This document shows, in pieces, positions 19,341 to 22,717 of a stretch of DNA of 64,000 nt; within the stretch, counting starts at the first letter, position 1, and each line of letters begins with the position of its first letter. A program made the position numbers and the translations under genes. The notes below the pieces were generated by a model that worked only from the letters and a program-made list of their open reading frames with translations, made no database searches and was not told the DNA's origin. Where the stretch lies: the sequence record OP978391.1; one strand, given 5' to 3'. The stretch is from Escherichia phage HP3.2.

Positions 19341-19811
19341 TTAATCATGTGTCCACACCCCATCGGTATTTGACCAAAGTCGCTGATTATCTGATCCTCG
19401 CCACAGCTTTTTGGTCGGAAGATTTTTCTCATACTTCCCATCAATAATAACATCAACATATTTAAGCATTTCTAGTTGTTTAATATCTTCAAACTTATAT
19501 CCTGTCCACAACCAAATGTCTTTCTCAGGAAATCTTGCTTTAACCCAAGAAACTAAATTTGAAATCTCTTCTCGGTTCTGTGGATAAAGTGGGTCACCAC
19601 CGGTTAAGGTAAGGCCTTGGATATACGATTTGCTTAAATGGGACGCAAGTTCTTTAACGGTATTCATAGTGAATAACTGTCCGTTACGAGCATTCCAAGT
19701 ACTACGATTATAACAACCTTCGCATTTATGCAAACATCCAGTGACGAAGAGAACGACCCTACATCCAGGGCCGTTAACGAAATCGCATGGATAAATTCTA
19801 TCATAATTCAT
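19341..19811 (-). CDS. nrdG: Anaerobic ribonucleotide reductase activase NrdG (radical SAM)
   Basis: Start placed at MNYDRIYPCDF (156 aa); radical-SAM cysteine cluster CLHKCEGC. Confidence 0.85.
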   Translation of the reverse strand: MNYDRIYPCDFVNGPGCRVVLFVTGCLHKCEGCYNRSTWNARNGQLFTMNTVKELASHLSKSYIQGLTLTGGDPLYPQNREEISNLVSWVKARFPEKDIWLWTGYKFEDIKQLEMLKYVDVIIDGKYEKNLPTKKLWRGSDNQRLWSNTDGVWTHD

Positions 19812-20433
19812 CTTTATATTTCCAAGTATATCCCTTATGAATAGATTGAATTCCTTTGCAACATTTATAAACAGCAGAATGAAAAAATCCTGCATTTCTT
19901 ATTTCAGTTGCTCCAGTTAGTTCTATTGTATTTCCGTCTGGTGAATAGCCAATAACCGTTTTGGTGTTAAAGCGATTTCTAGAACTATTTTTGATATGCT
20001 CTTTATGACTAGTAGACAAAGTTCTTCCTGTTAGCCCATCAGATATCCTTTTTCCAAAATCATCAGGAAGAGTTACTTTAGACCTAGCTATGCTCATTAG
20101 CTTCTTAGTTTTATCGCTTCTTTTTGCGCCACGCTGATTTTCAAATTTCTTAGCTTTTGCATACGCGTATTGTGAAGAAGTAACTTTTCTATGCTTACTA
20201 TTACTCATTATCCAATATGCATCATACATCTTTCCACCATATATTTTAGCCAATAAATGGTGAGCAGTATAGTGGGCCTTATAAGTTAAAAATACTAAGT
20301 TGTCTAAATCATCTGAACCACCCATACTTCTTGGAATTATATGATGAAGTTCATACCCGGCTTTAGTTTGACGGGGCTTAGATGGGTGTTCAGCAGAATT
20401 AACTAGATTTGAATAGATTCTGTCATAATTCAT
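19801..20433 (-). CDS. HNH homing-endonuclease-like protein (Mob family)
   Basis: HNH motif HHIIPRSMGGSDDLDNLVFLTYKAHYTAHH; free-standing between nrdD and nrdG; first 7 codons duplicate those of nrdG. Confidence 0.75.
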   Translation of the reverse strand: MNYDRIYSNLVNSAEHPSKPRQTKAGYELHHIIPRSMGGSDDLDNLVFLTYKAHYTAHHLLAKIYGGKMYDAYWIMSNSKHRKVTSSQYAYAKAKKFENQRGAKRSDKTKKLMSIARSKVTLPDDFGKRISDGLTGRTLSTSHKEHIKNSSRNRFNTKTVIGYSPDGNTIELTGATEIRNAGFFHSAVYKCCKGIQSIHKGYTWKYKDEL

Positions 20434-22247
20434 TGGTGTTTAACCCTATGCATGATTTCTTTATTTTTACCGAGATTAAATCCGCGTTCGTTCGGGTTTC
20501 CCAAATAACCGCATGTTCTTCTTATTGTGTTCATCTTTTTAGGATCAGTTTCTCCACAAATAGAACAAACAAACCCGTTTTCAGTAGGAGTCATTTCATG
20601 GGTACTTCCACACGTAAAACATTTATCTACTGGCATATTAACACCAAAATAATCTAAATGTTGTGCAGCATAATCCCATACAGCCTCAAGACCTTTTAAG
20701 TTATTTTTCATATCAGGAAGTTCAACATAAGAAATGTGACCACCTGTTGCAATGAAATGATACGGGGCTTCGCGAGAAATCTTTTCAAACGGAGTAATAT
20801 TTTCTTCTACTGAAACATGGAAACTGTTAGTGTACCAGCCTTTATCAGTAACATCCTTTACACTTCCATATTTTTCTGTATCAAGTTTACAGAAGCGATA
20901 GCAAAGGTTTTCAGCAGGAGTAGAATACAAGCTAAAAGCAAACCCAGTTCTTTCAGTCCACTGTTTAAGACGAGCATTCATTTTAGTTAAAATTTCCTGT
21001 CCAATATCACGACCGACAAGAATATTCAATTCGTGAATACCAATGTATCCTAAAGACACTGAACTTCTACCATTTTTAAATAACTCAATTATATCGTCAT
21101 CAGGTTTAAGACGAACCCCGAATGCACCTTCTTGGTAAAGAATAGGAGCAACAGTCGCTTTAACTCCTTTTAAGGAACTAATTCTACACATCAAAGCTTC
21201 AAAACATAAATCCATTCGCTCATTGAATAATTTAACAAATTTCTGTTCATTGAACTGTGTTCCAATATAAGAATCCAACGCAATACGAGGAAGATTCAGT
21301 GTTACAACACCAAGATTATTACGTCCATCAAGAATTTCATTACCAGTCGAATCTTTCCATACGCTCAAGAAACTACGGCAACCCATTGGAGAAACAGGAA
21401 CAGATGAACCAGTGATAGCTTTATTGTTCTTAGCTGAAATAATATCAGGATACATCCTTTTGCTTGCACACTCTAGAGCAAGCTGCTTAATATCATAGTT
21501 CGGATCGTCTTTATAAAGATTAACACCTTCTTCAACAAACATAACAAGCTTAGGGAAAATAGGAGTTATCCCATCACGACCAAGACCTTTAATACGATTT
21601 TTCAGAATTGCTTTCTGAATCATTCGTTCAGTCCAGTCAGTTCCCGTACCAAATGTAATTGTTACAAAAGGTGTTTGTCCGTTTGAACTAAAGAGAGTAT
21701 TTACTTCATATTCATAAGCTTGGAATGCATCGTATACGTCTTTTTCTGTTTTAGATTGAGCATAATTCAACGCATCAGCGATTTGCCATTTTTCTGCATC
21801 CTCAATATGTTTTGCATATGTGCGTTTAACATAAGGAGAAAGTACTTTATCTACATTCGCAAAAGTCGTTCCGCCATATTGATGGGAAGCAACCTGTGCA
21901 GTAATTTGTGCCATAATTGCAGTAGCAACACCGATTGATTTAGGAGTTTCAATCTGCGCATTACCAAGCTTAAATCCGTTCTCAAGCATTCCTTTTAAAT
22001 CTACTAAACAACAATTAGTAAATGGAAGAGCAGGGGAATAATCAATATCATGGAAATGAATAATTCCGCTTTCATGCGCTTTCATAATAAAAGACGGGAC
22101 CATATTTTTGGCAATGTGTTTAGACACAATACCAGCCATAAGGTCCCGTTGAGTTGGAAAAACACGAGAATCTTTATTAGCATTCTCGTTCAAAAGGTCT
22201 TTATTAGTTTTATGAATCAATCCTTCAATTTCTTTTTCAATTGTCAT
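20430..22247 (-). CDS. nrdD: Anaerobic ribonucleoside-triphosphate reductase NrdD (605 aa, uninterrupted)
   Basis: 605 aa; C-terminal Cys cluster CFTCGS...CSICG and glycyl-radical region; single continuous ORF. Confidence 0.9.
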   Translation of the reverse strand: MTIEKEIEGLIHKTNKDLLNENANKDSRVFPTQRDLMAGIVSKHIAKNMVPSFIMKAHESGIIHFHDIDYSPALPFTNCCLVDLKGMLENGFKLGNAQIETPKSIGVATAIMAQITAQVASHQYGGTTFANVDKVLSPYVKRTYAKHIEDAEKWQIADALNYAQSKTEKDVYDAFQAYEYEVNTLFSSNGQTPFVTITFGTGTDWTERMIQKAILKNRIKGLGRDGITPIFPKLVMFVEEGVNLYKDDPNYDIKQLALECASKRMYPDIISAKNNKAITGSSVPVSPMGCRSFLSVWKDSTGNEILDGRNNLGVVTLNLPRIALDSYIGTQFNEQKFVKLFNERMDLCFEALMCRISSLKGVKATVAPILYQEGAFGVRLKPDDDIIELFKNGRSSVSLGYIGIHELNILVGRDIGQEILTKMNARLKQWTERTGFAFSLYSTPAENLCYRFCKLDTEKYGSVKDVTDKGWYTNSFHVSVEENITPFEKISREAPYHFIATGGHISYVELPDMKNNLKGLEAVWDYAAQHLDYFGVNMPVDKCFTCGSTHEMTPTENGFVCSICGETDPKKMNTIRRTCGYLGNPNERGFNLGKNKEIMHRVKHQ

Positions 22248-22717
22248 TTTAAACTCTTTCTAAGCTGCTTCTTAAATGAAGCTATTAACTGTGTTTTAGT
22301 GTCAGATTCATTATATTCAAATCCTCTTTGAAGCATCTCAGCCATCATTTCCTCTTTTCCTAAACGAGAAAATTCCTTTGATTTATCTCCAATAAAGTTA
22401 GGGTGAATATTATTTTGGGTGTAATCGGATTTTAAATAAGTAAGTAAATTTTCTAACCATTCAAGATAATCAACACCTTGTCCCTTTAAGCCAGAACGAT
22501 TAAATTTATGCTTCATTTGACCTTCTGCGGCATTGCAGAGATTACAAAGCAATCCACGTACCTTTCCTGCTTTTGGTCCATTTAATTCATGATCATGGTC
22601 AAGGTGATTAGCTTGAACATCAGGATTTAGTTCTCGTTGGCAAATTAAGCATTTACCGTTTTGTGCATTATAAAATTTCTGTTTTTCTTCTTTGTATAAT
22701 TTGCCAGTCAATAACAT
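22244..22717 (-). CDS. 49: Endonuclease VII gp49 (157 aa)
   Basis: 157 aa; zinc-binding cysteines and H-N-H-like core CQRELNPDVQANHLDHDHELNG. Confidence 0.9.
   Translation of the reverse strand: MLLTGKLYKEEKQKFYNAQNGKCLICQRELNPDVQANHLDHDHELNGPKAGKVRGLLCNLCNAAEGQMKHKFNRSGLKGQGVDYLEWLENLLTYLKSDYTQNNIHPNFIGDKSKEFSRLGKEEMMAEMLQRGFEYNESDTKTQLIASFKKQLRKSLK

Follow-up and report, generated by a model that had tools for sequence, protein, structure and literature searches.

The gene mobC of Escherichia phage HP3.2 encodes a free-standing HNH homing endonuclease. It lies between nrdD and nrdG, which encode the large subunit of the anaerobic ribonucleotide reductase (RNR) and its activating enzyme. 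It was studied here within a stretch of 64,000 nucleotides (nt) of sequence record OP978391.1, hereafter called the window. We consider it probable that the left junction of mobC formed inside the nrdG start of a recipient phage, so that the old nrdG start now initiates MobC, and that a homing cassette replaced the 5' part of nrdG. This reading is grounded in the identity of the gene with T4 mobC, the geometry of its overlaps, the polymorphism of the site, mobC starts that follow the nrdG allele of the host, nested foreign tracts within nrdG, and the near-identity of mobC in two phage genera.

The mobC gene and its empty site

The HNH gene is T4 mobC, an already known element at its known place. 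Over the studied region the DNA is 100% identical to that of Escherichia phage HP3 (NC_041919.1), whose name is used below for both, and 97.3% identical to that of phage T4. The HP3 and T4 copies of mobC differ by 1 nt in 633 (nt 425), and tblastn gave 99.5-100% identity. The PF01844 (HNH) match of the protein scores 26.9 bits against a cut-off of 21.4 and covers residues 28-50. T4 has the gene, of 210 amino acids (aa), in this slot too, where it begins with the same 21 nt and overlaps its two neighbours by 4 and 11 nt as in HP3; HP3 thus has the same gene and position and differs only in being without the nrdD intron and its I-TevII. The original prediction, made from the letters of the window, had nrdD and nrdG separated by the gene of a mobile HNH endonuclease, which overlaps the stop of the one and the start of the other. 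The gene is indeed there, and its coordinates and overlaps all hold in the list of open reading frames (ORFs) and in the sequence.

The overlaps are tight. The nrdD stop and the mobC ATG share 4 nt (CAATGA), and the mobC stop falls inside nrdG codons 3-4, 8-10 nt into nrdG (ATGAATTATGA), giving an overlap of 11 nt. No ribosome-binding site of its own is found ahead of the mobC ATG. A review of T4 mobile elements (2010) already describes mobC as a free-standing HNH gene between nrdG and nrdD, and states that it overlaps the preceding ORF by 24 bp and that its ribosome-binding site lies 27 nt upstream (PMC2988022). The sequence disagrees, with an overlap of 4 nt and an in-frame TAA 9 nt before the ATG.

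Comparison of the junction in phages with and without the mob gene, a check that had been proposed with the prediction, locates the insertion to the nucleotide. In mobC-less RB51, Sfk20 and seven IMG/VR contigs, the arrangement is nrdD-ATGA-nrdG, and the nrdG ATG stands exactly at the position of the mobC ATG. In these relatives the 3' end of nrdD is the same up to that ATG base (between HP3 and RB51 it is nearly identical up to the stop, with 1-2 mismatches per 60 nt), and in HP3 the mobC ATG supplies the nrdD stop (ATGA). The site is polymorphic, as 31 phage records have mobC against ~845 with the junction, and most of the sampled records are uninterrupted. All 31 copies are at least 99.2% identical, and 3 of them belong to Klebsiella phages of Jiaodavirus type; exact-pattern scans of IMG/VR and JGI metagenomes for the mobC core gave no match. 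While mobC is this similar across Tequatrovirus and Jiaodavirus, the nrdD 3' ends of HP3 and Klebsiella phage Wolf_ER13 are only 74.8% identical, and the transfer of mobC between these genera therefore appears to be recent.

Origin of the shared start

The first 21 nt of mobC (ATGAATTATGACAGAATCTAT) and of nrdG (ATGAATTATGATAGAATTTAT) are identical at 19 positions and both encode MNYDRIY, as had been noticed from the window alone and as direct comparison bears out. With at most 3 mismatches, the 21-mer is found in the 64-kb window at these two places only; shuffles lead one to expect 0.01, but shuffled sequence is no proper null model for a pair of gene starts, both protein families natively beginning MNY..IY. 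The match is also the top direct repeat of the region, 24 nt long there (21/24 identical) with a spacing of 622 nt, which is also the extra length of the T4 locus over mobC-less RB51.

NrdG proteins natively start MNY/F-D/I-R-I/F-Y. For the HNH side, an initial search for homologous proteins with MobC gave only 12 distant matches, and a representative search was used for a family logo. At E<=1e-3 the family comprises 13,297 representatives; 160 were retrieved, 85 of which start with MNY, and the logo was built from the 112 that fit the N-terminal pattern. It reads M1, N2 (76%), Y3 (100%), a variable position 4 (Q 45%, D ~1%), [KR]5 (75%), I6 (64%) and Y7 (98%), followed by [DN]xLI. As the HNH and NrdG families both natively begin alike, most of the start similarity pre-exists in the two families, and the 19/21 match alone is weak and insufficient evidence for a duplication.

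The comparison with the Klebsiella phages supports a real junction. Their mobC is almost that of HP3, with differences only at nt 8, 9 and 425 in Wolf_ER13 and Boboto and at four further positions in Shark_ER15. In all three the gene starts ATGAATTTCGACAGAATCTAT (MNF), and the positions of mobC codons 1-7 read ATGAATTTC in Jiaodavirus phages, like the resident nrdG. The resident nrdG start ATGAATTTCGACAGAATCTAC is present in three mobC-less sequences of Jiaodavirus type (Shinkou and two IMG/VR contigs). Phenylalanine at position 3 occurs in 0/112 of the HNH family members fitting the N-terminal pattern; since all 112 have tyrosine there, F3 is not native to the family. In these Klebsiella phages mobC sits between a small DUF7415 ORF and nrdG, and the nrdG copy directly 3' of it is of the cassette type (ATGAATTATGATAGAATTTAT). 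The Wolf_ER13 mobC start (TTC GAC .. ATC) matches the resident allele, unlike the neighbouring nrdG copy (TAT GAT .. ATT). Because the downstream nrdG is cassette-type while the mobC start is resident-type, the latter follows the recipient and not its neighbour: the start codons of mobC follow the nrdG allele of the host. A T4-type donor and a single crossover within the 11-nt identity GACAGAATCTA would explain the form seen in the Klebsiella phages. In T4 and HP3, codons 4-7 of mobC (GAC AGA ATC TAT) match the Jiaodavirus nrdG allele at 11/12 positions vs 10/12 for the adjacent copy; D4 is found in ~1/112 family members, yet it is typical of phage NrdG. These codons probably come from nrdG rather than being native.

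A second HNH gene occupies the mobC slot in 32 records. It encodes 279 aa and is 38% identical to MobC over 60 aa. Its first 39 nt match base for base the nrdG allele common in Tequatrovirus in the case of phage Ozark (MNYDRFYPCDFVN; compared with record L017), and the Jiaodavirus allele in the case of SmallBear_ER8 (MNFDRIYPSDFVN; compared with Shinkou). In both phages a variant second nrdG start then follows the gene. At the level of sequence this 39-nt match reads unambiguously as a captured nrdG start, for which a native N-terminus would be no explanation.

Several points weigh against a captured start in mobC itself. Its activity is listed as ND and its target as unknown in Table 1 of PMC2988022. 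The MobC-type HNH family natively starts MNYx[KR]IYxxLI, which already gives 5-6 identical residues out of 7; MNYDRIY is matched at 6/7 by 24/156 HNH representatives and at 7/7 by one, the unrelated P0069. The latter is encoded between gp5-like and gp6-like baseplate genes, and its DNA matches the HP3 nrdG start at 18/21 positions by chance. The T4/HP3 form of the mobC start could likewise be wholly native, in which case the Klebsiella-phage variant would show only a crossover in an 11-nt chance microhomology. A resident nrdG allele with exactly ATGAATTATGACAGAATCTAT was not found in the allele scan, and a BLAST search for it with a hybrid query gave at best 3 mismatches in 80 nt. Finally, the two starts were picked for their similarity, which inflates its apparent significance.

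These points feed the alternative that survives best, although we regard it as unlikely: the T4/HP3 MobC would keep a native N-terminus that resembles NrdG by pure coincidence, and the gene would have been placed precisely upstream of nrdG with nothing duplicated. The family logo, with its invariant Y3 and nearly invariant Y7, and the example of P0069 argue for it. So does a MobC-like gene, 44% identical, which in the Slopekvirus phages AYL, Miro and Matisse stands directly upstream of nrdG (in AYL, L006 2501-3142) and in AYL, a Klebsiella phage, has its own start MNYQKIY and a 26-nt spacer before nrdG. However, replacement of the nrdG ATG by the mobC ATG to the nucleotide, with the ATGA stop of nrdD kept, is hard to obtain without a crossover in a shared start. 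The rarity of D4 in the family, the change of the start to MNF in the Jiaodavirus background and the 39-nt start of the second HNH gene also argue against coincidence.

It is quite improbable that mobC arrived with a native start whose first codons were later overwritten by gene conversion from the neighbouring nrdG. Recombination in T4 is very active, and two direct copies, 19/21 identical and 622 nt apart, would offer a substrate. Yet the mobC start of Wolf_ER13, Boboto and Shark_ER15 is the resident Jiaodavirus allele and not that of the adjacent cassette-type nrdG, which led us to reject conversion from the adjacent copy, and codons 4-7 in HP3 and T4 are also closer to the Jiaodavirus allele than to that copy. 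A transposon-like insertion with target-site duplication, suggested by the direct repeat flanking a 622-nt insert, is hardly credible, as the repeat is imperfect, its length is different for the second HNH gene (39 nt), no transposase domain (Pfam scan) or terminal inverted repeats (repeat search) were found, and the foreign tract alongside, in nrdG, is what homing with co-conversion typically leaves. It was rejected on the origin of the copies, the left one following the recipient nrdG allele and the right one arriving with the cassette.

To the original prediction the shared start looked as if the insertion had duplicated the nrdG initiation region. What stands is a recombination junction at the nrdG start, seen by comparison with mobC-less phages; a duplication of the transposon type does not, the two copies being of different origin. 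It had also named as fatal to its claim that the shared codons be ancestral to an unrelated gene. Part of this is found, in that MNYx[KR]IY is native to the HNH family, but the comparative data still support a real junction.

Foreign tracts in nrdG and other endonuclease genes of the slot

In HP3, nrdG is a mosaic of three parts. Compared with RB51, nt 9-293 are heavily divergent (up to 18/30), the last mismatch is at nt 293 and nt 294-471 are identical. The first tract, nt 1-113, is identical in HP3, T4 and Wolf_ER13, differs at one base in Boboto, and is ~17-20% different from both resident allele types. The second, nt 114-293, is ~90% identical to Klebsiella phage nrdG and in places 40-60% mismatched to RB51. 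After nt 113/114, Wolf_ER13 and Boboto are of the Shinkou type again. Such nested foreign tracts are what serial homing with co-conversion would be expected to produce; the Jiaodavirus-like tract of the T4 lineage would go back to an older event.

Within the cassette-linked tract, every sampled mobC-linked allele (n=7) differs from every sampled allele without a homing endonuclease gene (HEG; n=11) at positions 63, 72, 75, 96 and 106-110. This block includes the recoding of serine from TCA/TCT to AGT, and flanks the codons of the CX3CX2C iron-sulfur motif. The alleles linked to segH, which encodes another endonuclease of the slot, differ instead at nt 12-40 (D10C, 'PCCF') and not at nt 63-110. 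Those linked to the second HNH gene are also PCCF, this being the sole difference in Ozark, while SmallBear_ER8 also carries the nt 63-110 block. These associations between alleles and endonucleases, which are correlations and not cleavage data, suggest nt 63-110 as the best candidate for a recognition or immunity region of MobC. The enzyme would be active and cut within nrdG nt ~20-113, probably around nt 63-110.

The other occupants of the slot show further rearrangements. The 279-aa HNH gene is an in-frame fusion to the first 13 codons of the resident nrdG (Ozark, L003 2101-2940; SmallBear_ER8, L025 1152-1988). It is labelled 'mobC' in some records, and Tequatrovirus genomes have two matching places per record, hence a paralog elsewhere. 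The segH gene is found in the nrdD/nrdG slot of 73 phage records. In RB3 (L010, 1460-1510), SegH starts ATGCATAGG, that is, with the nrdD codons M-H-R of segH-less phages, and is preceded by the nrdD 3' end in recoded form; this capture of nrdD codons is the mirror image of the capture of the nrdG start by mobC. Two mobC phages, SHFML-11 (L005, ~1533-1590) and BEU50 (L014), have a segH-type recoded nrdD 3' end (..KEMVKRVKHA*), then a 21-nt remnant of an ordinary nrdD end, then mobC. At the start of nrdG they carry the 'PCCF' allele, which elsewhere goes with segH or the second HNH gene. Their sequence suggests that one endonuclease cassette replaced another.

In Slopekvirus, an empty site for the AYL-type homolog was looked for, and the apparently empty Earwig_ER32 (L026, ~366-426) holds a remnant, so that no clean ancestral state was obtained there. 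Only the last ~61 nt of the AYL-type gene remain, fused to the upstream small ORF, as the scar of a decayed endonuclease gene. KP15-type phages have an unrelated 175-aa ORF at that position. In Jiaodavirus phages, the DUF7415 ORF between nrdD and nrdG has 77-79 aa and overlaps both genes (Shinkou, L007 1410-1643; L009 3400-3639), and nrdD, compared with that of HP3, is extended at its C-terminus by 8 residues (VRETNEAS replaces the final Q).

Proposed mechanism, locus features and significance

In the proposed mechanism, MobC, whose activity is surmised, would cut nrdG of mobC-less phages, and repair would copy mobC and the neighbouring 5' part of nrdG from the donor; the gene would thus spread by recombinational repair into phages lacking it. 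The mobile unit would extend from about codon 4-8 of mobC to its end and include at least ~110 nt from the 5' part of nrdG, which replace those of the recipient. The right crossover would lie inside nrdG and the left one inside the first ~20 nt of the recipient nrdG. Because the upstream gene differs by genus (nrdD or a small ORF), homology on the left would often be absent, and the join would therefore form in the short stretch where the 5' ends of the Mob gene (family start MNYx[KR]IY) and of nrdG (MNYDRIY) coincide. In the resulting in-frame hybrid, the old nrdG start, ATGA-coupled to the stop of the upstream gene, would initiate MobC. The donor copy would make nrdG whole again, with a foreign 5' end in which most of the recoding is synonymous; the 11-nt overlap would couple this nrdG to the mobC stop. 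Translation of both MobC and NrdG is probably coupled to upstream stops.

A wider reading combines these elements, and as a whole we put it forward only tentatively, being somewhat inclined to doubt that all its parts hold at once. MobC would be an active homing endonuclease that very recently crossed between Tequatrovirus and Jiaodavirus, with a left arm of only the ~20-nt nrdG start, mimicked by its own N-terminal coding sequence. HEGs of the slot without a ribosome-binding site of their own would be expressed by capturing the first codons of the target gene and by translational coupling, while delivering a recoded, cleavage-immune 5' end. The site recognised by MobC would span nt ~63-110 of nrdG, around the radical-SAM cysteine motif.

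The features of the locus are collected in Table 1.

Table 1. Features of the nrdD-mobC-nrdG locus of phage HP3.2 (window positions)
Feature	Position	Strand	Basis
nrdD, large subunit of the anaerobic ribonucleotide reductase, one continuous ORF of 605 aa	20430..22247	-	ORF list; Pfam NRDD 1.3e-171 and Gly_radical; HP3 RefSeq annotation
Site, empty here, of the group I intron of T4 nrdD, after nt 538 of nrdD	21709..21710	-	HP3/T4 nrdD alignment
mobC, free-standing HNH homing-endonuclease gene, 210 aa, T4 mobC ortholog	19801..20433	-	Sequence match and slot; Pfam HNH
Repeat, left copy = mobC codons 1-7 (MNYDRIY)	20413..20433	-	Comparison with RB51, Sfk20 and IMG/VR contigs
HNH motif region of MobC, aa 28-50, HHIIPRSMGGSDDLDNLVFLT	20284..20352	-	Best stretch of Pfam HNH match
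nrdG, activating enzyme (radical SAM), 156 aa, three-part mosaic	19341..19811	-	Pfam Fer4_12 2e-50; mismatch profiles against RB51, Shinkou, Wolf, Boboto
Repeat, right copy = nrdG codons 1-7 (MNYDRIY), into which the 3' end of mobC (..KDEL*) extends	19791..19811	-	
nrdG nt 1-113, cassette-linked tract	19699..19811	-	Allele comparison
nrdG nt 63-110, candidate MobC recognition or immunity block	19702..19749	-	Aligned alleles (7 mobC-linked, 11 HEG-less)
nrdG nt 114-293, Jiaodavirus-like tract	19519..19698	-	Mismatch profiles
nrdG nt 294-471, resident 3' part of Tequatrovirus type, without differences from RB51	19341..19518	-	Mismatch profile

On the minus strand the gene order is gene 49 (22244-22717), nrdD, the HNH gene, nrdG, then small ORFs and nrdH. 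The ORF list (window 19341-19895) carries nrdG 28 codons upstream into mobC (184 aa), and homology puts the real start at 19811. A consensus scan for promoters and terminators gave a number of sites not above that in shuffles and was left unused. The taxonomy line of the HP3 RefSeq record NC_041919.1 reads 'Caudoviricetes; Rosemountvirus' though the DNA is ~97% identical to that of T4 (Tequatrovirus), which is probably a database classification error.

The nrdD gene of HP3 is a single 605-codon ORF, as predicted, whereas T4 nrdD has 1033 extra nt after nt 538, holding I-TevII; HP3 is continuous between window positions 21710 and 21709. The T4-type intron is present in 25 phage records vs ~850-1000 with this locus, and nrdD without the intron is the usual condition rather than a loss worth remarking. 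The intron is not linked to mobC either, since PST has the intron and another HNH gene, and RPN226 the intron and segH. The locus had been presented as a snapshot of endonuclease and intron dynamics. The absence of the intron relative to T4 is real, but nothing here is peculiar to this genome, as T4 has the same mobC and intron-less nrdD is common. About 10 synonymous differences between HP3 and T4 cluster in the 42 nt of nrdD exon 2 adjoining the intron site (window 21668-21709), presumably the side on which I-TevII cuts; the cluster could be a footprint of co-conversion or of target variation. Phage 215Ecol030PP and others have a different nrdD insert of ~495 nt, which shares only ~125 nt (82-85%) with the T4 intron and may be another intron, or one without an endonuclease ORF.

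Known systems offer close parallels. The activity of SegH, a GIY-YIG endonuclease, has reportedly been demonstrated experimentally. SegH uses the same nrdD/nrdG slot and also captures host codons; it belongs to an unrelated nuclease family and takes the nrdD 3' end, not the nrdG 5' end. In RB3, T6 and further phages it stands in place of mobC (Sandegren, Nord, Sjoberg 2005 NAR 33:6203, as cited in PMC2988022). T4 mobE, a free-standing HNH HEG of the same family as mobC, also lies between two RNR genes, nrdA and nrdB (Wilson and Edgell 2009, PMC2790892). PMC2988022 describes mobE as a gene without its own promoter, whose start runs into the stop of the gene before it and whose translation is presumed to be coupled; it describes start overlaps and presumed coupling for other genes as well. 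Unlike those of mobC, the activity of mobE and its target (nrdB) are known, and the passage on mobE in that review mentions no start-codon capture. In Aeromonas phage Aeh1 the mobE insertion splits nrdA, and mobA lies between T4 genes 39 and 60 (Friedrich et al. 2007 PNAS 104:6176, as described in citing text). In these two cases, as for mobC, a HEG recombined within the coding sequence of an essential gene of nucleotide metabolism or replication. There the host gene stays split, whereas the mobC cassette brings a complete replacement 5' end and nrdG is intact. What is left behind here as the N-terminus of the HEG amounts to 7 codons for mobC and 13 for the second HNH gene.

Among sites favoured by selfish endonuclease genes, the nrdD/nrdG slot is a textbook hot spot, and neither the presence of T4 mobC in HP3 nor the absence of the intron adds anything new. 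The capture of a start and the transfer between genera may be unreported, and would be a modest refinement of the picture of an ordinary selfish element. A 2012 paper found no convincing evidence for homing endonucleases crossing species or genus boundaries (PMC3468402); the present comparison offers sequence evidence suggesting a very recent movement of mobC between phage genera. It also offers an account, documented for two unrelated HNH genes and in two genera, of how a cassette that lacks a ribosome-binding site comes to be expressed and what fixes its left boundary, namely capture of the start of the target gene. Finally, it makes a specific prediction for the target of MobC, which would lie at nrdG nt ~20-113, with fixed substitutions at 63-110.

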